Virus record (IMG/VR): IMGVR_UViG_3300033121_002078
Location: 30,623 to 94,622 of that record
Source of the DNA: a virus
Lineage: Duplodnaviria > Caudoviricetes
Strand: one strand, 5' to 3'
Length of the DNA: 64,000 nt
In this document: piece after piece, positions 4,643 to 30,400 of the stretch
Layout: each line of letters opens with the position of its first letter
Numbering within the stretch: position 1 is the stretch's first letter
Position numbers and translations under genes: made by a program
Notes under the pieces: model-generated
The model's database searches: none
Seen by the model: the letters and a program-made list of their open reading frames with translations, nothing else
Told to the model about the DNA's origin: nothing

Positions 4643-6296
4643 TTTTTATCCTTTTAAACCAGGTTATGGCTTTTTTATAAATATCTAATTCACCTGAAGT
4701 TAGCATATTTTTTGCTATTTCTTGTGCCTGTTCTTTCGAAAGATTTGGGTTTTCGTCTTGTACTTCTCTGATACGTTCTTTGATTACTTCGATATATCCA
4801 ATTTGCCCTTTTGGTGGTGCTGCTGGCAATCCTATTAAGTCCATGATTTCTTTGCCATTAAGCAGGTCTTGTGATTTTGCCATATTTTGAGTAGGGGATA
4901 ATAATTTAATTCTGTCAATGTTTTGTCGATAAGGATTGGTTACAGAAACATCTGGTGTTTTGCTTTTGCTCATAGCATCTGCCATAGCATGTATATACTG
5001 AAAAACCCAATTGGGATTCTTTCTTACATATCTTCTTAGAGTTTTGTCTGATATATCAGGTCCATCTTCTTCTATGTGACTATGAGGACGCATATGACCT
5101 GCTATTAGCTCTCCGATTGATTGGGTTTCTTCATTATTTAATTGAAGTGCTTTTGAAAAAATCTTCCAAAAATCAGCACTTGATTGTTCGTGTGGAATTG
5201 CAGATGGATTATTTGGGTCTCCTGAATAACCACGTGTACCATCTGGCTTGTTTTTGTGAGAACGTGGGTCTAATTTTCCTAAATCATGAAATAGAGCAGC
5301 AAAATTCATTTTTGCTCTTTCTTCATCTGTAAGCCCATACTCCTTCGACAAATTATTTACATTCTTAAGTACTTCAAGTGTATGTTCTATAACTGTCAAT
5401 TGGTGCCACTTGTTTCTTTGATCCATGTTTAACGGATTAAAACTTGCTGGCAAATTAAGCATCTTACCAAGCAATCCGGTTTCATACATTACTTGAAGTG
5501 CTTTTTCTGGCTGTGTACCGCTCATCAGTTTTCTAAATTCTTCTGCAGTACGCTCCACAACTATGCCTTCTGGATCGTTTGCATTTATTATTTTTCTTGT
5601 TAATTGGTGTTGTACTCCAGGGTCTTTAATTGCTTCTATAACTTCGGGAGATATTGTGGAATTTGCATATCGTGAATAAAAACGAAAAACTCGTAAAACT
5701 CTCAACGGATCATCTTGAAATGTTTTGATTGGATCTAATGGAGTTCTAAGTGTCATGCTCTTAAGGTCACTAAGACCTTTGCCTGTGTGGTCTTCAACTT
5801 GTTTAGTGTTTATGTTGTAAAATAAGGCATTTAATGTCAGATCTCTTCTGTAAGCATCCTCTTGCGGAGTTGCCATTGTAACAATGGGGTTCCTGTTCCC
5901 TGGTGTGTAAACCTCTTTTCTTAGGCTTAGCAAATCAACCTTTTGCCCATAAATATTTAAAAATGACACTTCAAGATTCTTTATTTGTTCTGGTCTGGCA
6001 TCAGTAGTAGTAATTCTGCCGACTGCCCCTACATTGTTTTGTTTATCATACAGAGAAATAAATTCACCAAATTGTTTTCCGGTCATATTGTCAACAGAAA
6101 CATCCAAATCTTTTGATTGCTTATTAAGAATTTTATCTCTAACCCATCCACCGCAAATACGAGCTGTTGTTTCTGAGTATTTTCCGTTTGACAGTTGTGG
6201 GATAGACTTACACACTTGCAAAATTAAAGAGGTTATTTTTTCTTCTAACTCGTCAAGAGGAATATTGATACTTGAAAAAATCCACATCATTTTCAC
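4617..6296 (-). CDS. cca: tRNA nucleotidyltransferase (CCA-adding/poly(A) polymerase family) with HD domain
   Basis: CGGWVRD, DLD, EDAYRRDLTLNAL, DDPLRVLR; HD domain ALFHDLGK. Confidence 0.88.
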   Translation of the reverse strand: MKMMWIFSSINIPLDELEEKITSLILQVCKSIPQLSNGKYSETTARICGGWVRDKILNKQSKDLDVSVDNMTGKQFGEFISLYDKQNNVGAVGRITTTDARPEQIKNLEVSFLNIYGQKVDLLSLRKEVYTPGNRNPIVTMATPQEDAYRRDLTLNALFYNINTKQVEDHTGKGLSDLKSMTLRTPLDPIKTFQDDPLRVLRVFRFYSRYANSTISPEVIEAIKDPGVQHQLTRKIINANDPEGIVVERTAEEFRKLMSGTQPEKALQVMYETGLLGKMLNLPASFNPLNMDQRNKWHQLTVIEHTLEVLKNVNNLSKEYGLTDEERAKMNFAALFHDLGKLDPRSHKNKPDGTRGYSGDPNNPSAIPHEQSSADFWKIFSKALQLNNEETQSIGELIAGHMRPHSHIEEDGPDISDKTLRRYVRKNPNWVFQYIHAMADAMSKSKTPDVSVTNPYRQNIDRIKLLSPTQNMAKSQDLLNGKEIMDLIGLPAAPPKGQIGYIEVIKERIREVQDENPNLSKEQAQEIAKNMLTSGELDIYKKAITWFKRIKNANNNNWY

Positions 6297-7183
6297 CTAT
6301 TTAATGGCAAGAAGAATGGGTCTGGTATCAAAACCTCTTCTTTAGCAAAATAAGAAAGTCTGGAACATGCCAAAGTACATTCTTTTACTACAGTTCCAAG
6401 TTCTATTTCTGTAACCCTGCTATCGTAAAAATGTCTTGTGGGGAATATTACATCATCACCAACATGAAAAGCGTTTCCTATAGGATTTACCAATTCAATT
6501 GTTTGGTTATCAGTGAGATATCTCCTTGGCTTTGCATGGGATGTAAATTGATAATTTTCCAACCAAAACCAGGCAAACTGCTGAAGAAGTGTACTATCAG
6601 CAACCTTGATAAGCGTATCTGTTTCTGAAACATCTTCTACTAGTGTAGTCATTTTATATGACACAAGAGGATACATTGTCTTAAACAACGTATCACTTAT
6701 ATCAGTTGCCAATTTCAGCATATATGCATAATTTCTTTCGTAAAAACTGGTCTCTGTATACACAGAAATATCTATTCTGAATTCTCTACCTAAACTGTTC
6801 AGAGTTATCCAGTCATTACTAACGCTACCAAGAGCCACTGTAATTGCAGGAAACACGGGTATTACTGCAGGATCGCCTATATAAACTCCGCCTTTAAACC
6901 ATTGATCGTTAATTAATACCTGCACGTTATCGCCTACAGGGTGTGCTCGTGACAGTGGATTTTCTAATAGAAGCGTGCGATAATCGGTTGCCATTACAAC
7001 AGTAGCAATTTCTCCCGTAGTTGAACCGGAGGAATAGATTACAATCTTATCTCCGCAATTAAAACGTTTAGCACTTTGAACAGTAATAGTTGTTGCACCC
7101 TGATTGGCGACTACAGCCAAGGGCTGGATATTGATAACGCGACGTTCGATAACTTTCTTTATGGCTTGTAATACAGGTAACAT
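6293..7183 (-). CDS. Putative tail completion/neck structural protein
   Basis: GDPAVIPVFPAITV and IDISVY resemble tail terminator proteins; tail gene neighbourhood. Confidence 0.45.
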   Translation of the reverse strand: MLPVLQAIKKVIERRVINIQPLAVVANQGATTITVQSAKRFNCGDKIVIYSSGSTTGEIATVVMATDYRTLLLENPLSRAHPVGDNVQVLINDQWFKGGVYIGDPAVIPVFPAITVALGSVSNDWITLNSLGREFRIDISVYTETSFYERNYAYMLKLATDISDTLFKTMYPLVSYKMTTLVEDVSETDTLIKVADSTLLQQFAWFWLENYQFTSHAKPRRYLTDNQTIELVNPIGNAFHVGDDVIFPTRHFYDSRVTEIELGTVVKECTLACSRLSYFAKEEVLIPDPFFLPLNR

Positions 7184-7251
7184 TATTTAATATGCCGAAA
7201 AATTGCACAAAATCTTGCATCATAATGGTTTTTATCTGAAACTTTAGCATT

Positions 7252-7743
7252 ATGACGGCAATTACAAAAAAAGACGTTCACAAAGCTGTAGCACTATTTA
7301 AGAGAAAAAATGTACACTTTAAATGGGTCAAAAGCCTAAAAGGTCTTTATGGTTGCATTACAAGGTACAGTCCCGACAGAAAATCTGTTTATTATCTAGT
7401 CGAAGCACAAAGTAGACTACCAAATTATATAAAAGTCGCTGTGCTCGCTCATGAACATGGACATTATTTGTGCGATATTAAAAAATGCCACTGTGGTGGA
7501 GTAAACGGGGTACTTTATTCAAACAAAAAAATTAGCAGTATTGCCATAACAGAAGCTCATGCATATATATATGAAATCTCTTATTTGATGGAAAATAAGT
7601 TGTGGAAATCGTTAAAATGGGCAATGGATGTTTTTAGTTCAATAAACTGGAACACGGACATTGCCGTGCTTTCCAAGCATGTCAAAAGTTCAGCAGCCTA
7701 TAAAAAAGCAAAAATAGCACTCAAGAAAGTACCACAGAAATAA
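7252..7743 (+). CDS. HExxH zinc metallopeptidase (ImmA/IrrE-like)
   Basis: VLAHEHGHY with downstream EAHAY. Confidence 0.6.
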   Translation: MTAITKKDVHKAVALFKRKNVHFKWVKSLKGLYGCITRYSPDRKSVYYLVEAQSRLPNYIKVAVLAHEHGHYLCDIKKCHCGGVNGVLYSNKKISSIAITEAHAYIYEISYLMENKLWKSLKWAMDVFSSINWNTDIAVLSKHVKSSAAYKKAKIALKKVPQK

Positions 7744-7744
7744 A

Positions 7745-8464
7745 ATGAATGATATCGAAATTTTTGATCACATATCAATAATAAAAAACAAAACAAACAA
7801 TAGTCAACAAAAAGAAAAATCATTTAGGGTAATCAGTCAATATGTACTAGATCTGGTAATATGGATATCTAAAAACTATGGCGTCAAAGGATATTCCAGA
7901 GAAGACATAAAAAGTGAATGTTATTTGGTTCTTTGGAACGAAATAATTCCAACATTTGATCTTGAAAAAAATGTACCCTTCAGAATTTTTTCTTCTATTC
8001 TAATGAAGAGGCGTATGTTTTCTCTAATCCAGGCTTCTAGGCGACAAAAAAGGTATAGCCTGAATTCTGTTTCTTTATATTCAAAATGCTACAATAAACA
8101 CAACGAGCTGTATGGGGATTATTTAAATAGTGACTGGAGAAACCCGTCAAATGAAGAACTCATCAATCAAATAGAAAATGTTAAATGTGTTCAACCTGAA
8201 AAAATAGTAGAACAAAAAGAATCGTATGAAAAGTGCTTAAATAAGCTGTCTTCTATTCTATCAAAAACAGAAGCTGAAACATTATTAACCGTAACCGATG
8301 ATACCTCCTATAAAGAAATAGGAGAAAAATATAACCTCTCTATTAAAACAGTAGACAATGCAAGACAAAGAATTGCAGAAAAAGGCAAAGTTCTTCTTGC
8401 TTGTCCCAGAATATCCAAGATAAAAATTAAGAAGACCAGAAAGCACAAAGGACAGAATTTATGA
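7745..8464 (+). CDS. RNA polymerase sigma factor, SigH-like
   Basis: Region 2 SREDIKSE...FDLEKNVPFRIF...ASRRQKR..LN; region 4 SYKEIGEKYNLSIKTVDNARQRI. Confidence 0.85.
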   Translation: MNDIEIFDHISIIKNKTNNSQQKEKSFRVISQYVLDLVIWISKNYGVKGYSREDIKSECYLVLWNEIIPTFDLEKNVPFRIFSSILMKRRMFSLIQASRRQKRYSLNSVSLYSKCYNKHNELYGDYLNSDWRNPSNEELINQIENVKCVQPEKIVEQKESYEKCLNKLSSILSKTEAETLLTVTDDTSYKEIGEKYNLSIKTVDNARQRIAEKGKVLLACPRISKIKIKKTRKHKGQNL

Positions 8465-8750
8465 AACACGGCATAGAACTCTGTGTAGTATCTTTTTTCC
8501 CTGAACCCCAGGTAATAAAAAGAGATCCGTTTGGCATTGCTATGCTCATAGAACAATCTGACGTTGACAACTATGCCATTTTTTTTGTTGGCATTTAGTG
8601 ACGACAGTGATGAATTTGTTATCAAACGTGCCCAAGAAATTAGGGACAATGCAAATTTGAAATGAGTACAATTTTTTGGACACTAGCGTGGACTTTTCTG
8701 GTTGCAATAATTGTTGCAATCATCATTGGAAATGTAAAGGAAAATAACAA

Positions 8751-8981
8751 ATGAAAATACTTGGGCAAGTAGCTATTCATGTAGACAATGGTGGATACAC
8801 TTTTAAAATACAACAAGGAGATAACGACAAAGAATTATTAGCCCCACATATAATAATTGAAGACGGATATTACGGATATTCAAGTACACAACTTTCCTTA
8901 AACGAAAATGTTACTCCAAACACATTGAGAAAAATTGGAGAAATGTTTTTAGTAGCTGCAAATAAATTAGAAAATTCATAA
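8751..8981 (+). CDS. Hypothetical protein
   Basis: 76-aa ORF with AAGGA SD. Confidence 0.55.
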   Translation: MKILGQVAIHVDNGGYTFKIQQGDNDKELLAPHIIIEDGYYGYSSTQLSLNENVTPNTLRKIGEMFLVAANKLENS

Positions 8982-9256
8982 TGTTTTTATTATTTGCATA
9001 TAACGAATTTCCGTTAGGCGGCACAAAAGATCTTGTTGCCTGTTCTTCTTCTGCTGATGCACTTCTGTCAGAAATGCATCTGGATATGGATGGCAAATGG
9101 TATCATCTTCCTTGTACATCAGACGACAAAGAACATTATTTGTTCTGGCATATTTTCGACTCAGATAAGATGACCATAATAGCAGGATCAGAAGAAAGAG
9201 CAGAATTAATACGTTATTTGAATTCTTTCAAACCAAGAACTGTAGAATTACCTTAA
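8981..9256 (+). CDS. Hypothetical protein
   Basis: 91-aa ORF coupled to the upstream stop (TAATG). Confidence 0.55.
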   Translation: MFLLFAYNEFPLGGTKDLVACSSSADALLSEMHLDMDGKWYHLPCTSDDKEHYLFWHIFDSDKMTIIAGSEERAELIRYLNSFKPRTVELP

Positions 9257-9490
9257 AACATCATTTATTTTTGCTTGTATTTGTGCAATCAAATCTCTTT
9301 CGGCAGGAGAAAGATTTGAATTTTCAAGAGGAGAATTTTTTCTGAGCAAACTTTCAGAAAAAAGGTCGTAATTTCCACTTACAAATTTATTCCTTTTTCC
9401 ATCCCAAGTATAAGTAGAACCATCAATATTGCCAATGGCTTTTTCAAGCTTGTTAAATTTGTTTATAAGATCGTCTAAATTATCCGCCAT
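9248..9490 (-). CDS. Hypothetical protein
   Basis: 80-aa ORF overlapping the end of the upstream gene. Confidence 0.5.
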   Translation of the reverse strand: MADNLDDLINKFNKLEKAIGNIDGSTYTWDGKRNKFVSGNYDLFSESLLRKNSPLENSNLSPAERDLIAQIQAKINDVLR

Positions 9491-10232
9491 CTCGCTTTAG
9501 CTCCCTGTTATCATTCTTATTATCATGTGGAGGAAGACCGTATCTTGATACAAGATTGGTATTATAGAATCGATGTCCAATTCGCTCCTGCCCATGCAAA
9601 ATTGTAGTACCCTGCAAAATATCAGTTAATTGTCCAAAAGATAACATCCTCAATCTTTTTCCATAATCAGATTCACCTGGTGACTGATTACTGGAAAAGT
9701 ATTTGTCAAAAAAGTTACCTGCTGCAATTCTTGCTGCCATAAGAGCTAAAGCAGGATTGTATCCAACTTTAAGGACTCTGGTTGATTCGCTGTAAAACGG
9801 AACAGTTATATTTTCTTCAACTGTTAAAACGTTATCATCGCCAATTTCTGTAACATGCAATCTAACTTTAGTAGGCTGCGGTACGCTGGTTGACAAAATA
9901 ATTTCGTCCCCAGGGGCGGCAGATAATTCATCTGTAGTAACGATTTGGTTGGGAGTGCTGTATTCTGTACCTGCATCTACATCCAGAGTTGTTTCTTGCA
10001 ATGTAATCTTATGAAACGGAACTCTGTACATTTGAGACAGTCCAGAATCAATTTCGGCAGAAGCATATCGAATGTAATCCCAGACCAAAGTTTCGCTAAA
10101 GTTGTTAAAACTTAATCCATTTCCAATATTTATAAGGTCAACCTCAGTGCCGCTTTCAAGACTTGGAGCCCCAGTAGTTAATGACTGCTGCAATACTGAT
10201 TTGAAGTCGTTTAAATTACAATAATATGCCAA
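9480..10232 (-). CDS. Head-tail connector/neck protein (Mu gp36/DUF1320-like)
   Basis: MAYYCNLNDF...IRYASAEIDSGLSQMYRVPF pattern; TTG start with GAGG SD. Confidence 0.6.
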   Translation of the reverse strand: MAYYCNLNDFKSVLQQSLTTGAPSLESGTEVDLINIGNGLSFNNFSETLVWDYIRYASAEIDSGLSQMYRVPFHKITLQETTLDVDAGTEYSTPNQIVTTDELSAAPGDEIILSTSVPQPTKVRLHVTEIGDDNVLTVEENITVPFYSESTRVLKVGYNPALALMAARIAAGNFFDKYFSSNQSPGESDYGKRLRMLSFGQLTDILQGTTILHGQERIGHRFYNTNLVSRYGLPPHDNKNDNRELKRDGG

Positions 10233-10249
10233 TTTTATACCTCTGTATG

Positions 10250-10279
10250 ATTATTGATAATTTTTAGTAGTTTTCCTTT
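10250..10279 (-). promoter_or_regulatory. Putative phage sigma promoter AAAGGA-N17-CAATAAT
   Basis: Exact 17-nt spacing, upstream of the neck gene. Confidence 0.55.
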
Positions 10280-10332
10280 GCCCCAGACTGATTTATGAGC
10301 CATTTTAGTTTGAGCAAAGAAAAAAAAGACAA

Positions 10333-10953
10333 ATGGTAACAAAAACCAAAACAAAAACCGAATCAAATTTTATTCAATTATGTACCAGCGATAAACGAAT
10401 AGATAAAGGTTTATGTAATCTGGTCAATTCGAAAGTAGATAGAAACAAAAAATCAATCAATGAGTTAAGTAAAAACATATTGTCCATTTTAAACGCAGAT
10501 CCTTATGCAACCGAAGAGGCAGAATTAGATAAGTTATTCAAGCACCCAGACATTAAAAACATAAAAATTGATGGTGAAACGATCTATGTACGCACCGGAA
10601 ACATAAGTTTGATTTATAAGGGACAATCAATCGAAATCGGGCAATTTCAAATATCAATATATGCCGACTATGCCCAAGAGGAGGGTGATTATCCAGTTAA
10701 AATAGAAAATAAAACTCGCAGAAAAATGCAGCACGATCATCCACATATTGTGTGGGGTCAAGCATGTTGGGGAAACATAGGACCGATAATACATGATTTG
10801 GCGGCAAAAAGAAAGTTTTCAACACTCATCTGTCTCTGTATAGAGTATTTAAAGTCTTACAATGAAAATGATGCTGGAGCACCACTACCAACCCTGTGGC
10901 TCAAAAAAAGAGAGTATCATGGCGAAACGCAAGAAACCGAAGAAAAGGAGTAA
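10333..10953 (+). CDS. Prokaryotic E2 (ubiquitin-conjugating enzyme-like) protein
   Basis: HDHPHIVWGQACWGN matches the E2 HPx...G.xC catalytic signature; first gene of the Ubl operon. Confidence 0.75.
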   Translation: MVTKTKTKTESNFIQLCTSDKRIDKGLCNLVNSKVDRNKKSINELSKNILSILNADPYATEEAELDKLFKHPDIKNIKIDGETIYVRTGNISLIYKGQSIEIGQFQISIYADYAQEEGDYPVKIENKTRRKMQHDHPHIVWGQACWGNIGPIIHDLAAKRKFSTLICLCIEYLKSYNENDAGAPLPTLWLKKREYHGETQETEEKE

Positions 10954-11734
10954 GAAGATGTATCAGTATGGCGGTGGACAATACGGCAGTTCATATTGGA
11001 GCAGCAAGTTCGATAAGGTTGAAAAACTTTGTCCGCATGTTGCTAATCCAAAAATGGAACTTTTGGACGGAGAGTTACAGGCTCCGATCATTCTGCTTTC
11101 TCCTCAAGCGTATATGGATACGCATTACATCATGGAAGAGAGCAACGGTGATGAAGCTGCGTGGTTGGGAAATGTCAAGATTCTTCCAAAGTCGAAAGAT
11201 GATGATGCTCCGCGATATCTGATCGAAAACATCTTCCTCTTTAATCAAGATGTAAGTGCTGGCCACTGTGAATTCGATCAGGCTGATATCGGCAAGTTCT
11301 ATTCTGATATGCTGACTGAAGATCCGAAGAACAGGGATTTCCTTAATTCAATCCTTTTTTGGGGTCATGTCCACCCCGGATCTATGGTTACTCCGTCCCA
11401 GCAGGATGAAAATCAGATGGAGCTTTTTGCTCACAATGATTATTTCATTCGCGGCATCTTTACTCGTCAGAAAGTTTGCTCTTTCACTTTCTTCGATTAC
11501 AAAAATGGTTTGAAGTTTGTTGATTGTCCTTGGCAGTTGTACGTCGAAGAAAGCGACGAACGCAAAAAGGATATTGCTCAGCAAATGAAAGAGAAGGTGA
11601 AGCGAAAAAGCTGGGGCTTTCAAGGCAAGAAAAGCGGCGGATATAGTGGAGGCAGCAGTGGGTTTCGGCCTTCGCCTTCTTACGGGGAACCGCTATCAGA
11701 AGAAGACTGGAAAATGTGGGTAGAAAAGGATTAA
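10862..11734 (+). CDS. JAB/JAMM (MPN+) metallo-isopeptidase
   Basis: Upstream Glu (DEAAWLG) and WGHVHPGSMVTPSQQD = HxH-x7-SxxD; true start probably 10919 or 10958. Confidence 0.85.
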   Translation: MKMMLEHHYQPCGSKKESIMAKRKKPKKRSKKMYQYGGGQYGSSYWSSKFDKVEKLCPHVANPKMELLDGELQAPIILLSPQAYMDTHYIMEESNGDEAAWLGNVKILPKSKDDDAPRYLIENIFLFNQDVSAGHCEFDQADIGKFYSDMLTEDPKNRDFLNSILFWGHVHPGSMVTPSQQDENQMELFAHNDYFIRGIFTRQKVCSFTFFDYKNGLKFVDCPWQLYVEESDERKKDIAQQMKEKVKRKSWGFQGKKSGGYSGGSSGFRPSPSYGEPLSEEDWKMWVEKD

Positions 11735-11775
11735 TTACCCAACAAAAAAAAGGACTAAAAAAAGGGAACTAAAAA

Positions 11776-12438
11776 ATGGAACCAGATTTTTGGCGACAGT
11801 TAGATATTTTTGCCCCAGAAAAGTTTAAAACTCCAATTACGGTTATTGGAGCAGGTGCTACTGGCTCATACGCTGTATGGCTATTAGCAAAGATGGGGTG
11901 CAAAGATATAACTGTGTATGACTTTGACGACATTGAAAACCACAATCTTCCCAACCAGATTTACGGTCTGAATTCGGTTGGGCAGAAAAAGGTTGATGCC
12001 CTTCAGAAGATGATCAAAAATGAAACGGGCATCGAAATCAAAGTCAAACCCGAAAGATTCACTGAGGGTGAATTGAAGGGAATCGTTTTTGTACTTCCTG
12101 ATTCAATGTCCAGCCGGAAAGAGATTTGGGAAAACAGCATTAAGTACAAACTTGATGTTGAACTCATGGTTGAGACAAGGATGGGAGCCGAAGGTGGTCG
12201 AGTCTATACCATTGAACCTTCCCTTCCCAGGCAGGTAGATGGCTACGATAAGACCTTGTATAGCGACGAGGAGGCCGAAAGAAACGCTTGCACCGCTACC
12301 GCAATTGCCCCAACAGTTGCGACATTAGCAGGAATGGCGGTGTTTTCAATGATCAATTATGTAAGAGGAAAACAAATATACAATGAAACAATTATGTCAA
12401 TGTCACCAGTTTTGGTGTTAAACAAGAATTTCACTTAA
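11776..12438 (+). CDS. E1-like ThiF/MoeB adenylyltransferase
   Basis: VIGAGATGS, DFDDIENHNLPNQ, GQKKV; candidate catalytic Cys in ERNACT; no CxxC zinc pairs. Confidence 0.9.
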   Translation: MEPDFWRQLDIFAPEKFKTPITVIGAGATGSYAVWLLAKMGCKDITVYDFDDIENHNLPNQIYGLNSVGQKKVDALQKMIKNETGIEIKVKPERFTEGELKGIVFVLPDSMSSRKEIWENSIKYKLDVELMVETRMGAEGGRVYTIEPSLPRQVDGYDKTLYSDEEAERNACTATAIAPTVATLAGMAVFSMINYVRGKQIYNETIMSMSPVLVLNKNFT

Positions 12439-12455
12439 GGAGCACGCTTACAAGC

Positions 12456-12707
12456 GTGAAAAGAGAAAAAATGCAGACGCAAGCTAAAAAGACGGGTTTA
12501 ACCGCTAACATCGGCAAAATTCCTGGGGCTATCCACGAAGTGGAAATTGACAGCTCAAAGCCAATGAATGTCAAAGCCCTATTCGAAAAGATTGGTGTTT
12601 CGCTGGAAAAATGCGAACTCCAGAAAAACGGTGTCGAAATCGACGAGAACGCAATCGTTGAAGCAGGCGACAACGTTTTGGCAATCACCAAAATCAAGGG
12701 TAACTAA
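12456..12707 (+). CDS. Ubiquitin-like beta-grasp protein (ThiS/MoaD-like) ending KIKG-N
   Basis: Small size; KNGVEID...VEAGDNVLAITKIKGN resembles the ThiS/MoaD C-terminus; follows E1. Confidence 0.8.
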   Translation: MKREKMQTQAKKTGLTANIGKIPGAIHEVEIDSSKPMNVKALFEKIGVSLEKCELQKNGVEIDENAIVEAGDNVLAITKIKGN

Positions 12708-12729
12708 CCAACAGGTTTAAAGCCCTTAG

Positions 12730-12761
12730 AGCGGTAGCTATTTGGCTACCGCTTTTTTTTT
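12730..12761 (+). terminator. Rho-independent terminator after the Ubl gene
   Basis: AGCGGTAGCT-ATTT-GGCTACCGCT followed by a T run. Confidence 0.8.
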
Positions 12762-12772
12762 ATGAGGACAAC

Positions 12773-13909
12773 GTGCAAAATTCTAATGAATTCATTGAAT
12801 TTTTCACCAATAACGTGGATTCTATTAAATCTCTGGAAAAACTTATAGAATCAAAAGAGCGGACAAATTCAGAAAGAAAAAAAAGATTTGATAAAATTCT
12901 TAATGACATAAAACTCCTTAAAACACTTCAGTACGTATCCCAAAAAACAACAGATCGTATTTTGAGAGTCCTTGCAAATAATCCACAAATTGAACATATT
13001 CAGATAAGAAATGGCTGTTTATACATATATACCAAAAATCTAAAAGATCTCGCCAACAATCTTTTAGGCAAATACGAGATTGCTATTACAATTTCGTATC
13101 CACTTTTTGCAAAAATAACAAACAGAACTATGTCATTCTCTGGTTTTGCACACCCATCAGTAGACGAAAGCGGTAATCCTGTTTTTCAGTGGAATCTAGA
13201 TCAAAACGATATTTTAAAATATGTCCATGTTCTACTGTTTTGTTTACAAGACATATACTCACCTAAACCATCATCTCAATTTATTAAAAGGAAAAAAGAA
13301 CAAAAAATACAAACGCAAATACTCCCCAACAAAAAACTTTTCAACTTTCTTGTAAACAAAGCAAGTCAAGAACTTTGTAGTAGACAACTAAAAAGATACA
13401 AAGAAAATTTGGAATATTATCATTTAGAATATAAGCGTACACTCGTAGATTTAAAAAAATATACACTAATTTTAGAAAAAGCAAAAGATATTGAAACAAC
13501 AAGAATTTATATAGAAAAAGAAGCTCAATCAATTACACTGCACCCCGGTATCACTTCTTCATCTTTTAAAGAAGGATATCTTTTATTAGAAACCATTCAT
13601 ATTTACGCCAACGAAATAGATATTGGTCAATTCTCTGTTGGTATAAACCTGAAAGCGGCATCGATTACGTTCAAAAACAATACCAGACAGCATTACGGCT
13701 ACCATCATCCACACATAAATACAGAGGGCACAGCCTGTTTTGGAAACATTTCTATGATTATTACAGAACTACTTACGAGTAGAAAATTTGGAATAGTAAT
13801 CGATTTGGTTATTAAATTCTTACAGTCTTATACTCACGACGCCTATGGACAACCATACGTAAACCTCGAAGATTGGGCAAATGCAAACGATTGGGCAAAT
13901 GCAAACTAA
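12773..13909 (+). CDS. Coiled-coil protein with tandem E2-like domains (N-terminal Cys-less, C-terminal active-type)
   Basis: FAHPSVDESGNPVF (no Cys) and YHHPHINTEGTACFGN. Confidence 0.7.
   Translation: MQNSNEFIEFFTNNVDSIKSLEKLIESKERTNSERKKRFDKILNDIKLLKTLQYVSQKTTDRILRVLANNPQIEHIQIRNGCLYIYTKNLKDLANNLLGKYEIAITISYPLFAKITNRTMSFSGFAHPSVDESGNPVFQWNLDQNDILKYVHVLLFCLQDIYSPKPSSQFIKRKKEQKIQTQILPNKKLFNFLVNKASQELCSRQLKRYKENLEYYHLEYKRTLVDLKKYTLILEKAKDIETTRIYIEKEAQSITLHPGITSSSFKEGYLLLETIHIYANEIDIGQFSVGINLKAASITFKNNTRQHYGYHHPHINTEGTACFGNISMIITELLTSRKFGIVIDLVIKFLQSYTHDAYGQPYVNLEDWANANDWANAN
13871..13906 (+). repeat. Tandem 18-nt duplication GATTGGGCAAATGCAAAC x2
   Basis: Exact direct repeat at the junction of the two double-E2 genes. 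Confidence 0.9.
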
Positions 13910-15119
13910 ACGATTTTACAACCTCTTTCAAGATAAAGATTTTGTGATAAGCAATTTGCTTCGTCAAAAATCTTTATGTGAAACTAGTTTATTGAACATA
14001 AAAAATGCCTTTAAAGAACATAATAAAAACCTGAATGAACAGATCAAACTGTTAGATCAAACGCTACCAAAAAAACAAACAACTAGTCAAATAAATAAAT
14101 TACTGAAAAATAAAAAAATACAGGCAATAACATTAAAAAACAACACTATTAATATATATACTAATTTTTTGAGAATGCACGACATTTATTCTCATAACAC
14201 TTTTAATCTAGGAAGAATCCATATTCAAATCGATATGGTAAATAATAAAGTAATCGAAATTTCCAATCAAAGCAAACCAAATTTTTGGCACAATATGTCT
14301 GGACACCCATATATATACCCTGAAGGACGGCCACGCAGACCGATCCCCGTGGCCGTGCCTTGGGACAGTTTTAATGAAACAATAAATACAATAATTTATT
14401 CCTTGGAAAATGTAGACCTGTCATATTATTTTTCTGAGCCTCCTACTTTGGACGATTTGCACAAAGTAATAAACCGTCCAAAACATATTGAAACTAAAAT
14501 TGATAAAGCAAAATGGAATTCAATTATTAATATTTCCAGAGTTAAAAGTATAAACGATAATATCAAAGATATTAAACGTACTATAGAATATACAAAACGC
14601 CAATATGACAATATAAAACAAGGATTGTTAAAAATAAATGAGGAATTAGAACGATATCAAAATTATAGATACGATGAACAGACTGCAAAAAACGAATTTA
14701 ATGCAATCATGTCCCATCCTCAAATAACAAGAAGACGATTGGACAAAAATAACAATCTACATTTACGAACAAAGCATATATATATAAAGGATGAAGACGA
14801 AGGAATAGTTGATATTGGCACATTTGTCATACAAATCTCATGCAATGAATACGAAGACGTTATTCGCTGTTTTAACAAAACAAGAACAGTAATACTTTTT
14901 CACCACCCCCATGTTAATGATGATGGACTTCCATGTTTGGGCAACATTTCTGATCTAGTGCCAAAATTAGTCCATGACAGGAAATTCGGTATATTAATAG
15001 ACATAATTATTAAGTTTCTTCAATCCTACACAAGTGATGAATATGGAAGACCATACGTAAACCTTGAGGAGTGGGCAATACAAGTAAACAATGAAAAAAG
15101 TAAAAAAGTCAAGACCTAA
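13881..15119 (+). CDS. Paralogous coiled-coil protein with tandem E2-like domains
   Basis: GHPYIYPEGRP (no Cys) and FHHPHVNDDGLPCLGN; C-terminus FLQSYTSDEYGRPYVNLEEW closely matches the upstream paralog. Confidence 0.7.
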   Translation: MQTIGQMQTKRFYNLFQDKDFVISNLLRQKSLCETSLLNIKNAFKEHNKNLNEQIKLLDQTLPKKQTTSQINKLLKNKKIQAITLKNNTINIYTNFLRMHDIYSHNTFNLGRIHIQIDMVNNKVIEISNQSKPNFWHNMSGHPYIYPEGRPRRPIPVAVPWDSFNETINTIIYSLENVDLSYYFSEPPTLDDLHKVINRPKHIETKIDKAKWNSIINISRVKSINDNIKDIKRTIEYTKRQYDNIKQGLLKINEELERYQNYRYDEQTAKNEFNAIMSHPQITRRRLDKNNNLHLRTKHIYIKDEDEGIVDIGTFVIQISCNEYEDVIRCFNKTRTVILFHHPHVNDDGLPCLGNISDLVPKLVHDRKFGILIDIIIKFLQSYTSDEYGRPYVNLEEWAIQVNNEKSKKVKT

Positions 15120-16194
15120 TTTTATTTTGTACAGATGTTGCCTTTGCTAAGCAGCCCGTACTTACTGTAAGAAGAGGATTTTCGGCTAACCGTACATTCT
15201 TTACTATAAACGGTAATAGATTTCGACGCTCCATATCCGCTATCACCTGACGAAAACGCTCTATAAAGCCTGGAACCATGCTTGTGCCCCCTGCCACAAC
15301 TATCTCAAAGGGGGTAGTTATTCTTTCATCCTTGGGAATTTTCTCAAACTTTGCACTAAACTTCTCTAAAACATTGCTCAGAATACAATCGTACATGCAT
15401 GATAAAGCAGAATCTTTCAGATTAGAATCATCCACTTTGTTTAAATTGAAAATTCTTTCTTTATATCTGGTCATCATTTCAACCGATCCACCAGCTATTT
15501 TAACTGCTTCCTTATCTACAAAATCCCCAGAATTTTCTATAGAAAAAGTCAACAAAGGAAGTTGACGACGAGCAAGACAAGCATTAACCAAGCCGCCACC
15601 AAAGCTAAAAGATAAGCCAGTATGCTCGGAAACCCCATTTGGTTCATCTGGATCATCAGCACAAGGATTTTCAGCCAAAATAATAGCAAAACTTTCATTA
15701 ATGGGCTCTGGAATATAACCTAGTTGCTTAATAATGTTTGTTAGCATAGTTCTGTGATAAATAACATTATTTGTGCTATTGTCTCCAGGTACACAAAAGC
15801 AACAAACTTCTGTATTGGGCTTCTTAGCTTCTCCACCCAAAGCTCTTTTTATAAGTTCTTTGATTATAACCAAACTCATAGAATCATGAGCAGTGTTTAA
15901 AATGCCATCTTGCATAGGACGACGTATAGAGCTAAAATACGAAGTTTGAGCCCCTGTACGTTTAAATAACCCCTCTATTTCTGCAATTTTGTATACATCC
16001 ATTCCTAAAACATAGTATTTCCCATCATGCTTTATATAAGTGTAATTATTGTTTTTCAGAATATCTTCTGGATCTTCTACTGATTCCTTAACTTCGGCAA
16101 AACAGTTTCTTTCAACCGTAAATTCAACTTCGTCCAAGCTGTTTACTTTGCTTCCAACGATATGAACTGTGCCTACATCAAGTCCTACTGTAAT
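15109..16194 (-). CDS. Actin-fold ATPase (MreB/ParM-like), probable ATT start
   Basis: GLDVGT phosphate-1 motif in frame upstream of the track start 16137; INESFA, SFGGG, VVAGGTSMVPGF. Confidence 0.8.
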   Translation of the reverse strand: MTVGLDVGTVHIVGSKVNSLDEVEFTVERNCFAEVKESVEDPEDILKNNNYTYIKHDGKYYVLGMDVYKIAEIEGLFKRTGAQTSYFSSIRRPMQDGILNTAHDSMSLVIIKELIKRALGGEAKKPNTEVCCFCVPGDNSTNNVIYHRTMLTNIIKQLGYIPEPINESFAIILAENPCADDPDEPNGVSEHTGLSFSFGGGLVNACLARRQLPLLTFSIENSGDFVDKEAVKIAGGSVEMMTRYKERIFNLNKVDDSNLKDSALSCMYDCILSNVLEKFSAKFEKIPKDERITTPFEIVVAGGTSMVPGFIERFRQVIADMERRNLLPFIVKNVRLAENPLLTVSTGCLAKATSVQNKIRS

Positions 16195-16267
16195 GATACA
16201 CCTCCGAATTATCTTTCTTTACAACATTCATGCTGCTAAATTCTTTCAGACATGTACAATTATACAA

Positions 16268-16777
16268 TCACAGAATATCGTCTGCGACTGATTTTATGTT
16301 TATTTTGGTTTTTACTACTGTCTTTTTAGATGCTGAACTATCACTATCAATTTTGACGTTTTCAAAGCTCTTACTAACTATATTTGCCAACGATTCTGGA
16401 TTCAATTCCAAAGAATTTTCACCCGCACCCGCCTGAGCAGTGCCAGAGCTGTTTCCAGAAACCATCTTAATATTTGAAATAGCACTAAGTATAGTATCCA
16501 ATTTTTCATTCAACTCATTATTGTTAGATGTTGGTTCCAACCTTATTTCTTTTACTACATTCTGTGGAACGGCAACTTTAGTACTATCTACTTTTAGTTT
16601 TCCACCTATTAATTTGACTAACTTATGTTTTGCACAATATTTTAAATCCAATGATCTGTTTATACTATCTAGTGTTGTCACTTTCAACAAATCAACAGAC
16701 TGACCTGGATCTAGTTGTACTTTTAAATCTGCCAACTGCAAAACTGATCCAGAAATGTTTTGAATCACATAATTCAT
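16268..16777 (-). CDS. Hypothetical protein
   Basis: ATG overlaps the upstream TGA (ATGA); track start is 16849. Confidence 0.55.
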   Translation of the reverse strand: MNYVIQNISGSVLQLADLKVQLDPGQSVDLLKVTTLDSINRSLDLKYCAKHKLVKLIGGKLKVDSTKVAVPQNVVKEIRLEPTSNNNELNEKLDTILSAISNIKMVSGNSSGTAQAGAGENSLELNPESLANIVSKSFENVKIDSDSSASKKTVVKTKINIKSVADDIL

Positions 16778-16977
16778 CTTGCTACCCGCATTGATGGGAA
16801 TGGTGCTGGTTTTGTAAAACTGAAATCCAACACATTCATTTTGCCACATTCACAATGAAAATATATCTTTTCATCCCTAAAGTTAAATTCTATTACTCCA
16901 TCACCTGGAGAATTAGAATGTTTACCACAAGTACAAACCATGATGATAGCCGTATTTTTTTGAATTACGTCTGGCAT
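16774..16977 (-). CDS. Small Cys-rich (zinc-ribbon-like) protein
   Basis: CTCG...CECG; promoter motif immediately upstream. Confidence 0.55.
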   Translation of the reverse strand: MPDVIQKNTAIIMVCTCGKHSNSPGDGVIEFNFRDEKIYFHCECGKMNVLDFSFTKPAPFPSMRVAR

Positions 16978-17011: not shown

Positions 17012-17309
17012 AAGTTATACTGCCATTACACGTAATTTTTGTTTCTGGAGAAACAAAGTCAAACAATTCTTCCAATGTTATATTTGGCATCTCAATATTG
17101 ATATCTGGAATTAATACACGAGAGTTAAAATTGTTATAGTGATTTAGATTATGTGTTTTACAGAAGATGTACATAATATAATTATATGCCTCTTCTTTTT
17201 CGTTTATTTTTCTTTTAAATAAATCGACCGCACCTTTGCAATTCACTACTGAATATTGCTTGTTTGCGTAACTTTCACAACATTTATCAAAAAACGCTTG
17301 TAGACTCAT
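17010..17309 (-). CDS. Hypothetical protein
   Basis: ATGA overlap with the methyltransferase stop; track start is 17324. Confidence 0.45.
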   Translation of the reverse strand: MSLQAFFDKCCESYANKQYSVVNCKGAVDLFKRKINEKEEAYNYIMYIFCKTHNLNHYNNFNSRVLIPDINIEMPNITLEELFDFVSPETKITCNGSIT

Positions 17310-18499
17310 AAAAAGTGCTTCCAAAAGTTTTTATGAAACTGTCTAAAGACCCTCCAGTCAATAGCAAATTGTGACCACCTAAGAGCATTTTGCAACAAGC
17401 TATTAAATTCTTTCGATTCAAGAGCCTTTTTCAACAAAACCCCCTGCTCTTTAGAAAGTATTGGAATACCCATAGCATGTGGTGTCATTCCATATTCCCC
17501 ATTTTCATCAATTACTACATTCTGTATAGTATCTCCATCTCCAAAGATCACTTTTGAAACACCAAAAAACATTTTACGTTCAGAACTATAAAAAAATCTA
17601 ATACCATTTTTAGGAGTAGTATGAACACACAAATGACAATGTTTGTCTGTTTTTATTTTGCTTATATATGGCTTGTTGTGTACATACTCTGTATAACTAT
17701 ACAGAATCTCATTTCGTTGTTCGTCTAACGGACCAATGAGCTTTTTTACTATATCAAAATCACAATTGGGAAGAAATAAAAAATCTCGCAAATTAATAAC
17801 GCTCTCATGCCCCCTTATATCTTTGACAGTAGTAACACCACAATAATCCGAAATACAAACAACATACCAATCAAAAGGGGTTGATGCCTTTAATATCTTA
17901 ATGCCGTCTCTTTTATTATGCATTTCAAGATACATTAGATTGTATTTTTTAAATTCTGAAAATAATGTGTCTTCAGGTTTTCTCCACTTCGGTGGATGAA
18001 CAGCAACCAAAAAACCATCTCGTTTAATTGTGGCAAACGCCAACAAAACAAATTTGTCCCACAATATATTTCCAGATCCACTGCCGCCACCAGTTTTTTT
18101 AACTGGAGGTTGATATGGCGGATTCATTGTTATTACATCAAACTTTGTATCCCAAAAATTGAAATGTAAACTATTTGTACACTCTAGGTTGAGATCATAT
18201 TTGCCCAACGGGTCAAGTCGCAGAGCTGTTAAAACACAGTTCTTTGACTGCAAATCAACTCCGTATAACATGTTTTCTAATATGTGTTTTTCTCTGTCGT
18301 TTGGATCTTTTATGATGTCAGCCAAACTTTTCATTAATCTCTTTTTTATCGCAATTAGAAAATTTCCAGTACCACAAGCAGGATCACACCACTTAAAGCG
18401 GATATCCAGCCATACTTGTGGCGGTAGCTTGTCCAACATTTGTTCAATCAAACTTAAAGGAGTGAGTACTTCAGCAAATAGTTTTTTAGGCGTGATCAA
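17306..18499 (-). CDS. N6-adenine DNA methyltransferase (gamma class, Eco57I-like)
   Basis: DPACGTGNF (motif I) before NPPY (motif IV). Confidence 0.88.
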   Translation of the reverse strand: MITPKKLFAEVLTPLSLIEQMLDKLPPQVWLDIRFKWCDPACGTGNFLIAIKKRLMKSLADIIKDPNDREKHILENMLYGVDLQSKNCVLTALRLDPLGKYDLNLECTNSLHFNFWDTKFDVITMNPPYQPPVKKTGGGSGSGNILWDKFVLLAFATIKRDGFLVAVHPPKWRKPEDTLFSEFKKYNLMYLEMHNKRDGIKILKASTPFDWYVVCISDYCGVTTVKDIRGHESVINLRDFLFLPNCDFDIVKKLIGPLDEQRNEILYSYTEYVHNKPYISKIKTDKHCHLCVHTTPKNGIRFFYSSERKMFFGVSKVIFGDGDTIQNVVIDENGEYGMTPHAMGIPILSKEQGVLLKKALESKEFNSLLQNALRWSQFAIDWRVFRQFHKNFWKHFL

Positions 18500-19296
18500 A
18501 ATAGTGCAGTGCGTTTTTTAGAGTCGGTTTTTTCCAGCCGTTTTACTGACATTTCCACAAACTCTTCTTCAAGCTCTATACCAATGTATCTAAACCCATT
18601 CTGTATACAAGCAACACCAGTAGTCGAGGAACCAGCAAAACAATCAAGAATGATGGCATCTTTTATTTGTGGAACACTTTGCAGAATACGTTCTGGAAGT
18701 TCGACACTAAAAGGTGCAGGATGTGGATTGTTTGTTTCTTGTTTTATATCCCACACATCCCCTACTCCTGATGCTCCTTTGCTTTTAAGCTTGAACTCTG
18801 GTTTGGCGTATAACAAAATATATTCATGCGTAGGCAAGTAAAAAGTTGGAGAAAAATTAATTCCACCAGATCTACGCCAAATAATAATTTGTCTTAGTGG
18901 TAAACCCGGATTCCATTCCATAGGGTGCTCAAGTAAACCATTTTGTATTCGTGGTTTATGATTATAATAAATCGCTCCATCGGACCTAACTTTTTCCCAA
19001 CAAGTCTTTAAAACTTCAGACTGCCATGACCTATATTCCTCTTTGGGCATAGCATCATCGTGTTCACCATAACCATGTGCAAGACGAGCAGATTTCCATT
19101 TGCCACTACCCAAACCCCCCTTAAGACCACCACCAGAAGATATGCCAAGGTTATACGGTGGACTTGTAATTACTAAAAAAATAGATTCATTTGGCAATTG
19201 CCTTAATATATCTAGGCAATCACCGTGAATAATTTTCCAACTTTCAGTGCCGAAAGTTTTTAGGTGGGCTGGAATGATGTCTGACAACAATTGCAC
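18496..19296 (-). CDS. N4-cytosine/N6-adenine DNA methyltransferase (beta class)
   Basis: HGDCL, TSPPY, HPAPF, DCFAGSSTTG. Confidence 0.9.
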   Translation of the reverse strand: MQLLSDIIPAHLKTFGTESWKIIHGDCLDILRQLPNESIFLVITSPPYNLGISSGGGLKGGLGSGKWKSARLAHGYGEHDDAMPKEEYRSWQSEVLKTCWEKVRSDGAIYYNHKPRIQNGLLEHPMEWNPGLPLRQIIIWRRSGGINFSPTFYLPTHEYILLYAKPEFKLKSKGASGVGDVWDIKQETNNPHPAPFSVELPERILQSVPQIKDAIILDCFAGSSTTGVACIQNGFRYIGIELEEEFVEMSVKRLEKTDSKKRTALF

Positions 19297-27444: not shown

Positions 27445-30400
27445 CTACTCATCTTTAAAATATTCGAATATATCATCAGGTAATTCATCATTATAAAGGT
27501 CAATTAAATTCCCACCATAAGAGGTCTTGTAAATACACTCACCTGATGCCTTTTTGGAGTTGCCACTGTTAGCTAGTTTCTTAATATAAGAAGCTGTAAC
27601 ATTTTTAACAGCATCAGGAGCATCCTCTACGGTTTGAGAGTCGAATCTTATCACTGTCCAACCACGCATAGCTAAATCATAATCACGCTGTTTATCGTGC
27701 TGTAATTGCTCTGGTATCTGGTGAAACTGCCCGTCTACTTCAAAATCCAACTTTAATTTAGGAAATGCAAAGTCCAACTTATAAGCAGGCCCACCACGTG
27801 GATTTTGAACAGGATACTGGAAGAAATAAGGAGTGTTAACCCCCAATCCGTTCACTACATTATCAAGTATTTGTCGATAAGATTGCTCTAACTCTGTAAA
27901 TCTCACTTGACCGTATCGAACAGGCTCAACTTCTTTTTGTAATGACTTGGCTTTGCTCTTTTTAATCACTTTCATCGGAGAACCTGGCATACCCGCAGAT
28001 GCCATTGCACCGCCGCCACCCGGAGCACCACCGCCACCACCAGGAGCACCACCGCCAGCATCACCACCCGGCATTCCACCGGGTCCACCCATTTCAGGAG
28101 CTGCACCAGGTCCGCCCGCTGCAGCAGGACCACCACCAGCCATACCACCACCAGGCATGCCACCTGGACCACCACCACCGCCACCAAGTTGTGCTCCTTG
28201 TGGGCCAGCTACTGCCATTTCATAGCGTGTACGTTCTACTTCTTGGCTATAATTTAATTCCATTTCCTCGCATAGTGTCTGCGTAGAACATACCTGCTTA
28301 TCGTGTAGCTGCATTATCTGCTGCAGTCTTTGTGTACGATCACGAAGTCTTAAATCGTTCCATTTAATTTCAGGGGTGTAATAAATGGGTCGGCCATACT
28401 CTTTAGACTTTTCTTTGTCTATAAACCCCTTCATTTGAGCTATAGGTTCAAAAACTCTCTTGATGACAAAGTTAGAAAGCATTGTCTGGAAGTTCTCTAA
28501 TCTTCTGATAAGAGTTTCCACGCCTACCTGAGCACTATTGCCTTGGACAGCAATCAACCCATTTCTCATAGTGACAAACAGTCCATGTGGCACTGTAAAA
28601 CAGTATACTTTTCCAGTGTAAGCTACTCTGCTAATAACACCGTTGTTTTTCAGTTCGCTTCTTGAGCTATCTCTTGATTCGATCCCTGGGTTAACTCCTT
28701 TACGCCCCTTGGACAAATAAACCACCCATTGCTGATGCCTTGTATGATATTCAACGCCACGTTTATTTTTGTAAACCTTATCTGCAGATTCTTTGAATGG
28801 TTTTTTAGTTAAAGTAACAACATATCCACATTTAAATCCAATTTCTGCCACATCCATAGAAAGTTGTTCACTACTGGTGTGATATGCAAGGTAATCCTTC
28901 TGTTCTTTACCGCATGTTTTAACACTTCCGTCACCAAGAATCATGCTGTGCAACAACAATTTAAGTTGCTCAACAGGAAGATTTTTAATCCATGCAGGCA
29001 AACGCTTTACGTATGAATGTCTACCATAATACAATTCAAAGTGTTGAGCTAATGCTGGCTTATATATATGAATTGTATCATTAAGAGTGTTAGTGTGATA
29101 AGCAGAGAAAACCCTGTCACAAACTGCTACAATTTGTTTTCTGGCTTTTCCATTCGGGCTTTGATGAATATTTACAGTTATGGTTTCATTTTTTCTGTTT
29201 TTTCTTTTTTTATTTGACAAACTGCCTTCAGAGACATAAAAACCAGCCAATTCACAATATTCGTTAATAGGAATAGTTAAATTATCAGATATTTTAACTT
29301 CTGGCACATATTCACCGACGAAATCATCAACAACCCCTATAACTTTAGCACGGGGCTTTACATCTTTTGCCTCAACAAATCTAAATCCAATTTGATTACG
29401 TGGCTGTACATACATTCTGTGATTAGGAGTAACAAGAATATCTATCTTTTCAGTTTTAAACTGTACCATTTCCCCATTATAATCGTAAATGTGTTTTTGA
29501 ATATATGGGTGATACTCAATAGACTTTGTTTCGGGATTAACGCAAGCTATCTTGTCATTTTCATCTATTTCTGTATACTGTTTAAACCCACTATCAGTTA
29601 ATGTCAGAGTATCTTCTGAATGACAATTGTAACTTGTAGCTTCACCGTTAAGCAATGCCTGATTCAACATAAGACCATCAAGCAATTCTTTGTCTATATG
29701 TTCAAGCTCTTGAGATACTTGCAGTATCTTGCCCTGTGCACCGACAAAATCGATATCAACAAGGTGATGAGTTACAAGGCACACATTTGGCTCATTTGCA
29801 ATACTTGCAAGCATTTGTTGTGCTTCTGCAATATCCGCTGGACCAGCAGGACGCTGATCGCTTCCAACCTTGACCAGTTTAATTGGAACAATCAATCTTT
29901 CTGCAACTAACCACTGTGCAGACATAAGTTTTGTCTTGTAAGCTAAAGTTTGAAAAAGTGGACGAATCATACTCGTACCATAAACACCATAATCTACGGC
30001 CATGTGTTTCATATGTACAAGAGTTCTTGGAGAAAGACGAATAGGTTTCTTCTGCAAAATCTGCTGTTTAACCTGATCTGACAACTGGTTATATATCTCT
30101 GCAGGTTGTTTAGTCTGCACTATCTTTATAATGTCCTCATCAGGAATCATCACAATAACTGCTTCATCTGCCCAAGGTGGTTTTACTACTTCAATCCAAT
30201 CAGGATTGAGAATTACTAATTTGTTGATATCGCCATTTTTGTGATTGCAACGTTCACCAGAGTCTGGATCTATTGAAGTGCCACCACATTTTTCGCAAGA
30301 CATATCAACATGGATAAACACATCTCCAATCATGTGATATTCTAACGAAATCTGTTTCAGCTTATTCATGATTTCGAGACGCTCAACTTCATACTCGAAG

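Follow-up and report, generated by a model that had tools for sequence, protein, structure and literature searches.

A stretch of 64,000 nucleotides from the IMG/VR virus record IMGVR_UViG_3300033121_002078 (positions 30,623 to 94,622; hereafter the window) carries six adjacent genes that probably constitute a working, virus-owned cascade for ubiquitin-like protein (Ubl) conjugation. The genes encode a β-grasp Ubl, a minimal activating enzyme (E1), a JAMM/JAB metallopeptidase (JAB) and three conjugating enzymes (E2s). We identified these parts and their folds, found their catalytic residues conserved and their Ubl precursors capped or in tandem, and observed the same cassette in further phages. 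An earlier note on this DNA had described six co-oriented plus-strand genes, and all six open reading frames (ORFs) are present at the coordinates it gave, together spanning window positions 10333-15119 (Table 1).

The source record is 94.6 kb long, with an estimated completeness of 46% and thus an estimated full genome of ~200 kb; every absence from the contig reported below applies to this portion. PHROG matches on the contig comprise portal, large terminase, minor tail, ribonucleotide reductase (RNR) and CCA-adding enzyme, and the portal, large terminase, minor tail and RNR genes identify it as a tailed phage.

Table 1 Features of the conjugation cassette, in window positions
Feature	Position	Strand	Length (residues)	Description
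E2 no. 1	10333-10953	+	206	N-terminal helices and predicted UBC-fold domain; HPHIVWGQAC at residues 136-145
JAMM/JAB metallopeptidase	10958-11734	+	258	Length from ATG; longest ORF from 10862 (290 residues)
Minimal E1	11776-12438	+	220	Single ThiF-type adenylation domain; Cys172 (nucleotides 12289-12291)
Ubl precursor	12456-12707	+	83	β-grasp; C-terminus KIKGN (Lys-Gly82-Asn83)
Terminator-like hairpin and T-run	12728-12765	+		Hairpin 12728-12755; GC-rich 12-bp stem with 6 GC pairs
E2 no. 2	12773-13909	+	378	Cys-less partial E2-like domain, helical linker, active-type E2 domain
E2 no. 3	13881-15119	+	412	Cys-less partial E2-like domain, helical linker, active-type E2 domain

Components of the cassette

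The earlier note had read the genes as an E2 with an HPH...C site, a JAMM protease (E...HxH-x7-SxxD), a ThiF E1 with a candidate catalytic Cys, a β-grasp Ubl and two ‘E2E2’ proteins, giving three Cys-bearing E2s in all, and had seen no ThiG/MoaE-type sulfur-transfer genes. Each of these assignments is upheld by the fold, profile and motif evidence given in this section.

An AlphaFold2 (AF2) model of E2 no. 1, built with 30 homologues, had a pLDDT (predicted local distance difference test) value of 79.8 overall and above 90 in most core blocks. The top Foldseek matches to this model were nearly all E2s, with UbcH7 leading and Ubc13, UbcH5 and UBE2S among them (probability up to 0.99, E values from 3e-3), and VIA-align placed 115-118 residues in register, model residues 55-191 against E2 residues 2-142, which covers the whole UBC domain (Z 6.8). 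In an unbiased structure comparison with 48,161 chains, E2 and RWD folds came top at Z 6.4, including the E2 domain of Cap2 (7to3_A, Z 5.4). We assign the protein as an E2 because these structural matches are coherent and are joined by an active site, though the scores themselves are middling. The HPH...C protein is accordingly modelled as a UBC fold in Foldseek, VIA-align and the chain-wide scan alike, a non-UBC fold having been the outcome that the earlier note named as speaking against its reading.

All three window E2 proteins contain HPH-x6/7-C. In E2 no. 1 the spacing is HPH-x6-C and the candidate catalytic residue is Cys145 (nucleotides 10765-10767). The active-type domain of E2 no. 2 (residues 247-376; HPHINTEGTAC) places Cys322 at nucleotides 13736-13738, and that of E2 no. 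3 (residues 269-409; HPHVNDDGLPCLGNI) places Cys352 at nucleotides 14934-14936; the latter motif fits what we take to be the classical E2 active-site pattern in a regular-expression test from which the first position was excluded. As library models gave no match, we built our own E2 profiles, and an E2 core profile recovered these two domains at E values of 7e-36 and 1e-40. The profile hidden Markov model also matched the N-terminal parts of both proteins, at residues ~13-136 of E2 no. 2 (5e-8; ‘HPS’, no Cys) and ~37-151 of E2 no. 3 (1e-12; ‘HPY’, no Cys), where the matches are partial and cover the β-meander up to the HP motif. Each long protein contains two E2-profile domains, of which the first is without Cys, and is therefore a fusion in which a helical linker connects a Cys-less E2-like part to the active-type E2 that follows. 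The two are paralogous, and E2 no. 2 starts at a GTG codon with GAGGA ahead of it. Of 103 family proteins across every locus fetched, only the window proteins and a group from two related loci (L006 and L008) have E2 domains in tandem. The order or activity differs in that group: an active domain precedes a Cys-less one in L006, and both domains have the Cys in L008.

A profile of eight C-terminal domains places the window E2s in a large unannotated family, with 4,974 representative clusters matched at E ≤ 1e-3 out of 1.84 billion; the members whose names were looked up are all ‘hypothetical’. Across 28 diverged E2 domains the invariant positions are P-H, the Cys, a Gly two residues past the Cys, a β-meander Gly and a C-terminal Trp. 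The first His of HPH varies (H/G/A) across the family, and the invariant His occupies the Asn position of HPN. Against PDB sequences, all nine matches of the family profile are E2s, and the active site of UBE2W (VHPHVYSNGHICL) lies in register with the family PH...C. The Pfam model UQ_con (PF00179) matched one of 30 relatives (2.9e-5) and none of the window E2s.

The JAB gene probably starts at the ATG at 10958, judging from its setting: this codon lies immediately past the upstream stop codon, with AAGGAG ahead of that stop. The longest ORF overlaps the gene for E2 no. 1. Seven diverged homologues all keep the zinc-site residues E66, H137, H139, S147 and D150 (E...HxHx7Sx2D). In sequence libraries the protein is weakly matched (PADLOC JAB 0.0028; Pfam Prok-JAB 0.0073 in two of seven relatives), and its profile found no JAB among PDB sequences, so that a fold search was required. 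The AF2 model (pLDDT 72 overall, mostly ~80-93 in the core) matched Rpn11, CSN5, BRCC36, AMSH and BubCD in Foldseek at E values of ~1e-6 and probability 1.0, with 172 matches at ≤ 1e-3. The E...HxH-x7-S-x2-D site is thus found on a predicted MPN fold, as in JAMM/MPN+ peptidases. The Foldseek check, which the earlier note had proposed, returned mostly E2s at the top for E2 no. 1, and JAMM peptidases among the matches for JAB.

The E1 matches Pfam ThiF (1.6e-21) over residues 20-201. Among solved structures, E. coli ThiF is the nearest (1.5e-7), and its Cys184 aligns with Cys172, a residue kept without exception by four E1s of related loci.

The single Ubl scored above threshold in none of Pfam, PADLOC, PHROGs and NCBIfam, ThiS reaching just 0.039. 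A profile of four Ubl sequences matched P. furiosus PF1061 (5.5e-6) and SAMP2 (9.1e-6), in alignments that extend to within one residue of their C-termini, and matched MoaD, ThiS and TtuB more weakly. The C-terminal Gly is invariant and is followed by one residue, which is Asn in the window. Among 62 viral Ubl homologues, 51 (82%) have 1-3 residues past the last Gly; 25 end in KGN, the commonest ending, and just five end on Gly. The Ubl gene of L008 (14346-14795) consists of two head-to-tail copies joined at ...RGN|N..., and two- or three-copy precursors with Gly-Asn junctions, resembling polyubiquitin precursors, occur in L008, L025, L028, L030, L041 and L075. By analogy with Type II Bil and polyubiquitin, capped and tandem Ubls have the pattern of a tag that needs maturation by a peptidase.

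The resemblance of the E1 to ThiF, and the weak contacts of the Ubl profile with MoaD, ThiS and TtuB, could also be read as those of a sulfur carrier, in which a ThiS/MoaD/TtuB-like thiocarboxylate would serve cofactor synthesis or tRNA thiolation and not tagging. Such a role does not suit the presence of three E2 genes whose Cys is invariant, or of a JAMM peptidase, nor does it suit a tag that is capped or in tandem where a free Gly-Gly would be expected. No ThiG, MoaE or PP-loop sulfur-transfer gene was found in the contig, and the E1 sequence has no CxxC zinc motif. With neither the free Gly-Gly tag nor ThiG, MoaE or thiolase partners on the contig, we rejected the sulfur-carrier reading, which we hold to be very improbable.

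Recurrence and genomic setting

The operon was surveyed in other phages, as the earlier note had suggested. A scan of IMG/VR with E1-derived patterns confirmed at least 229 stretches with this E1 subfamily, and 79 loci were kept for analysis; when two of the window E2s were used singly as queries, IMG/VR returned nothing, and the alignment-derived patterns alone worked. By profile, 43 of the 79 loci have all four parts, 27 have three and nine have fewer. By clustering, all 79 loci have an E1, 77 a JAB, 70 a Ubl and 54 an E2, and these genes are co-oriented; in 16 of the loci left without an E2, an unassigned family of 431 residues lies upstream of JAB. Between one and five E2 copies occur per locus, with highly variable N-terminal regions. 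The cassette-bearing contigs reach 395 kb, many being 180-190 kb. They have no flanking genes in common with the window, so the cassette moves as a unit. The E2 expansion is most extreme in L019, a 189.6-kb IMG/VR contig in which five E2-profile ORFs surround one JAB-E1-Ubl core (4833-13318).

These counts bear on a reading in which the cassette antagonises host Ubl immunity: its JAB would strip Bil or CBASS conjugates, its E1 and E2s would soak up or mis-charge host tags, and its own tag would stay unconjugated. Counter-defences are common in phages, and peptidases of the Cap3/BilC JAB type negatively regulate host pathways (PMC11601596). Against this, the phage's own Ubl is kept in 70 of the 79 loci, often as a multi-copy precursor, and the E2 catalytic Cys is conserved; retention of both points to use of the phage's own tag, and we consider the antagonist reading improbable.

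Close homologues of the window proteins are few, yet their contexts repeat the operon. A phage-like 33.8-kb contig (L002) has the order E2, E2, JAB, E1, Ubl. A 9-kb contig with the protein P0002 has an E2, a 278-residue gene in the JAB position, a ThiF and an 87-residue gene in the Ubl position, the second and fourth being positional candidates. Related operons were also found on groundwater contigs (L003-5), on contigs of metagenome-assembled genomes (MAGs; L006 and L008) and on a Saccharibacteria MAG contig (L013). A scan of genome contigs with very narrow patterns gave two loci, and L014, one of the two, has no match to our own profiles. Two of these contigs carry further genes close to the cassette. 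In L002 a TROVE/Ro60 gene (15288-16901) lies ~2 kb downstream, together with Thg1, RNA ligase and PTH2, and the contig with P0002 has a class-I release factor gene (PCRF/RF-1). The window's own contig shows no coupling of the cassette to a Ro60 ring or to a retron reverse transcriptase.

The operons on cellular MAG contigs, Saccharibacteria included, would suit a cassette that has the same chemistry but is cargo immunity, tagging the structural proteins of competing phages in a Bil-like manner (superinfection exclusion) and leaving host proteins alone; the variable N-termini of the E2s would likewise fit an arms race. However, most relatives that the ESM Atlas can place are viral (69-82% of the nearest clusters), and the family is rare in sampled cellular genomes, with an E2 in three of 401 from the phylum of the Saccharibacteria MAG. 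The phage contigs that bear the cassette are also large and apparently of lytic type, and no integrase was noticed nearby. Cargo immunity thus seems to us a rather unlikely explanation.

In deposited phages we found partial relatives only. Neither blastn of the island nor tblastn of E2 no. 3 and JAB gave a match among 50,697 GenBank phages. Related ThiF proteins with 30-33% identity occur in Xanthomonas and Erwinia jumbo phages, in FpV4-like Flavobacterium phages and in Bacteroides phages (crAss-like, e.g. Kehishuvirus); in Flavobacterium phage FpV4 itself, E2, JAB and Ubl were undetected. The cultured Xanthomonas and Erwinia jumbo phages have partial relatives in the form of a ThiF gene beside an E2-like fusion protein. 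In the 228-kb jumbo phage PhiXhv-15 of Xanthomonas (L015, PV764602.1; 2253-5627), the ThiF gene bears the annotation ‘thiamine biosynthesis protein’, and the ORF directly upstream encodes an 892-residue ‘hypothetical protein’ with an E2-like domain (IHPHM...GSLCLGS). Our profiles found no JAB or Ubl near that ThiF gene. As a cultured phage, PhiXhv-15 offers a possible experimental foothold. By terminase (25% identity) and actin-like protein (29%), the nearest deposited relative of the window is the uncultured 485-kb huge phage LR745208.1, in which E1 and E2 were not found.

Within the window, the terminator-like hairpin separates the Ubl gene from the fifth gene and splits the island in two, and the order is therefore E2-JAB-E1-Ubl, terminator, two long E2 genes. 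This arrangement suggests higher expression of the core four genes than of the distal E2 pair. The earlier note had placed the island among minus-strand morphogenesis genes, a setting that the flanks do not bear out: genes on the 5' side had no family match in library scans, and on the 3' side lie a homologue of the Volactin actin family (E 5.9e-45) and then two DNA methyltransferases. Since none of these is demonstrably structural, the idea of a ‘morphogenesis island’ was rejected. An Rfam scan of the window found no RNA family.

A role in virion assembly or maturation, with the Ubl attached to or cleaved from phage structural proteins by analogy with the lambdoid Ubl/JAB pair, has to be weighed against the same surroundings. 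Ubl and JAB genes are reported from tail-assembly clusters of caudate phages (Iyer et al. 2006, PMC1779556), and structural genes are present on the window's contig. The flanks of the cassette, however, vary between phages and are not structural in the window, and the lambda-type modules have no E1 or E2. This explanation is in our view quite unlikely.

Other genes of the window were noted in addition. The Volactin gene (341 residues, 15109-16137, minus strand; Pfam Volactin being an archaeal-type actin family) runs convergently towards the last E2 gene, and their ends overlap by 11 nucleotides. Two huge uncultured phages, LR745208.1 and LR756511.1, have homologues with 29% identity. An actin of this family in a phage may merit interest for its own sake, and it leaves the host domain slightly uncertain. 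The two adjacent methyltransferase-like genes (17306-19296, minus strand) match N6_N4_Mtase (6.5e-34) in one case and PHROG methyltransferases in the other. Further away, residues ~405-598 of the 1229-residue RNR large-subunit ORF (53944-57636, minus strand) match HNH endonucleases, pointing to an intein or to the insertion of a homing endonuclease. The portal-like ORF (27445-30783, minus strand) is unusually long at 1111 residues, and its residues 382-490 match a PHROG annotated thymidylate synthase.

Proposed mechanism and role

From the conserved catalytic residues and the established mechanisms of E1, E2 and JAMM enzymes, we infer the following course of events, in which every chemical step and the targets are putative. 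The Ubl would be made as a capped precursor ending ...Lys-Gly82-Asn83, and the JAMM peptidase would trim Asn83 to expose Gly82; the same JAB may also reverse conjugates. The minimal ThiF-type E1, probably a homodimer, would adenylate Gly82 and would then probably take the tag as a thioester on Cys172, the invariant Cys of its crossover loop. Transthiolation would pass the tag to the catalytic Cys of one of the E2s (Cys145, Cys322 or Cys352), which would ligate it directly to target lysines with no separate E3.

The divergent N-terminal parts of the E2s could supply substrate choice or non-covalent binding of the tag. Coiled-coil helices are predicted in all three, and a Cys-less UEV/RWD-like half-domain (UEV, ubiquitin E2 variant) in two. 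Mms2 assists Ubc13 in chain building, and the Cys-less half-domain could support chain building in the same way.

A number of points count against a working cascade. The cassette has no linked target, E3 or partner for degradation, and the contig is only ~46% complete. The structural scores of the E2 are middling (VIA Z 6.4-6.8; Foldseek E ~3e-3), sequence matches to E2s are weak (E 0.05-0.8), and the window E2s have no match among Pfam, NCBIfam, PHROG and PADLOC models. A Cys is also present at the position of Cys172 in ThiF and MoeB, so that this residue by itself does not prove a thioester step.

The earlier note had suggested that the cascade may modify host or phage proteins or counter host Ubl immunity. 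For a conjugation cascade of this kind, action on host proteins, either in takeover of the cell or in neutralising its defences, ranks first among the roles considered, as a real possibility that still falls somewhat short of an even chance. Action on competitor phages ranks second and is unlikely by comparison, and action on the phage's own virion or assembly proteins comes third, being more doubtful again; other roles take up the rest of the probability. More broadly, we tentatively propose that large phages widely carry offensive Ubl tagging, in which interchangeable E2s with their own targeting modules would mark host proteins, for example host defence proteins during infection, in a mirror image of host Bil immunity. 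The E2 family combines a classical HP[H/N]...C site with UEV-like modules in fusion and, as part of the same tentative proposal, may be a relative, from viruses of prokaryotes, of the lineage behind eukaryotic E2s.

Comparison with known systems

The cassette is not a Bil, cyclic-oligonucleotide-based anti-phage signalling system (CBASS) type II or Bub system, and it departs from the defining features of each. By analogy it would work like Bil, with four parts, a capped tag and no E3, while differing from it in E1 architecture and E2 type. Bil types I and II (BilABCD) share the part list of Ubl, E2, JAB and E1, with a separate E3 in neither system. Bil Ubls have a conserved Gly and a short removable tail, and multi-domain Ubls occur among them (10.1101/2023.09.26.559546); with a JAB in the operon, Gly82-Asn83 of the phage Ubl corresponds to this arrangement. 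In contrast, the E1 of Bil has three domains, IAD-AAD-CYS (PMC11601596), whereas that of the phage is one adenylation domain with no room for IAD or CYS domains, because ThiF spans residues 20-201 of its 220. Bacterial E2-like proteins of classes 6c and 6d, the former later renamed Type II Bil, are without the classical His ahead of the Cys (Iyer et al. 2006, PMC1779556), while the phage E2s have a classical [H]-P-H...C site. Pfam Prok-E2 gave no match at E ≤ 1, and PADLOC matched none of the E2s. The cassette differs further from Bil in being encoded by a phage and in having several E2s.

CBASS type II resembles the cassette in combining E1 and E2 activities with a JAB; the Cap2 E2 domain is a structural neighbour of the phage E2 (7to3_A, Z 5.4), and PADLOC E1-E2 models give matches in the Rossmann part of the phage E1. 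However, Cap2 fuses E2 and E1 and its ‘tag’ is the CD-NTase itself, whereas the phage genes are separate and include a dedicated Ubl, and no SMODS/CD-NTase match was found in the contig. Bub (6E/DUF6527) likewise has an E1, E2, Ubl and peptidase, and the JAB domain of BubCD (9ea4) is a structural neighbour of the phage JAB. Bub forms oxyesters on Tyr (E1) and Ser (E2) and uses a serine protease, BubE (PMC11601596); by contrast, Cys is invariant in the phage E2 (28 domains) and in the phage E1, and the contig holds no DUF6527.

Canonical eukaryotic and archaeal E2s (UBE2W, UbcH7, Ubc13-Mms2) and eukaryote-like archaeal operons share with the phage E2s the UBC fold and HP[N/H]-x7-8-C in register, UBE2W itself having HPH. 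A Cys-less E2-like module beside an active E2 is reminiscent of Mms2-Ubc13, with the difference that the two are fused in one chain in the phage. The sequence similarity to canonical E2s is marginal, the first His of HPH is variable and the partner E1 is of the minimal ThiF type. Archaeal SAMP/UbaA/JAMM1 and the ThiS-ThiF and MoaD-MoeB pairs offer a SAMP2-like β-grasp tag, a ThiF-like single-domain E1 and a JAMM partner, but they lack an E2 and have tags with a free Gly-Gly terminus, as opposed to three E2 genes and a capped Gly-Asn end in the phage. The lambdoid tail-assembly pair (Iyer et al. 2006) is also a phage-encoded Ubl domain with a JAB peptidase, but it has no E1 or E2 and a fixed tail-assembly context.

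The earlier note had not recognised the architecture as described, and our literature search, which was not exhaustive, likewise found no description of a phage E2-JAB-E1-Ubl operon. The nearest report concerns ThiF-like genes in Asgard viruses, for which the authors propose action on host ubiquitin systems. In the literature searched, prokaryotic Ubl conjugation is characterised only in the host-encoded Bil, CBASS type II and Bub systems. Of these, Bil and CBASS are anti-phage defences. The phage-owned cassette is complete, conserved and widespread; its E2s look classical and vary in number, its E1 is minimal and its tag precursors are capped or contain several tags. This suggests that protein tagging is also a phage tool. 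Its small, soluble-looking parts are suited to reconstitution, and it provides a concrete route to asking what a prokaryotic virus tags, and why. It differs from the characterised prokaryotic systems in its ownership, by a virus and not by the host, and also in the types of enzyme that it employs.

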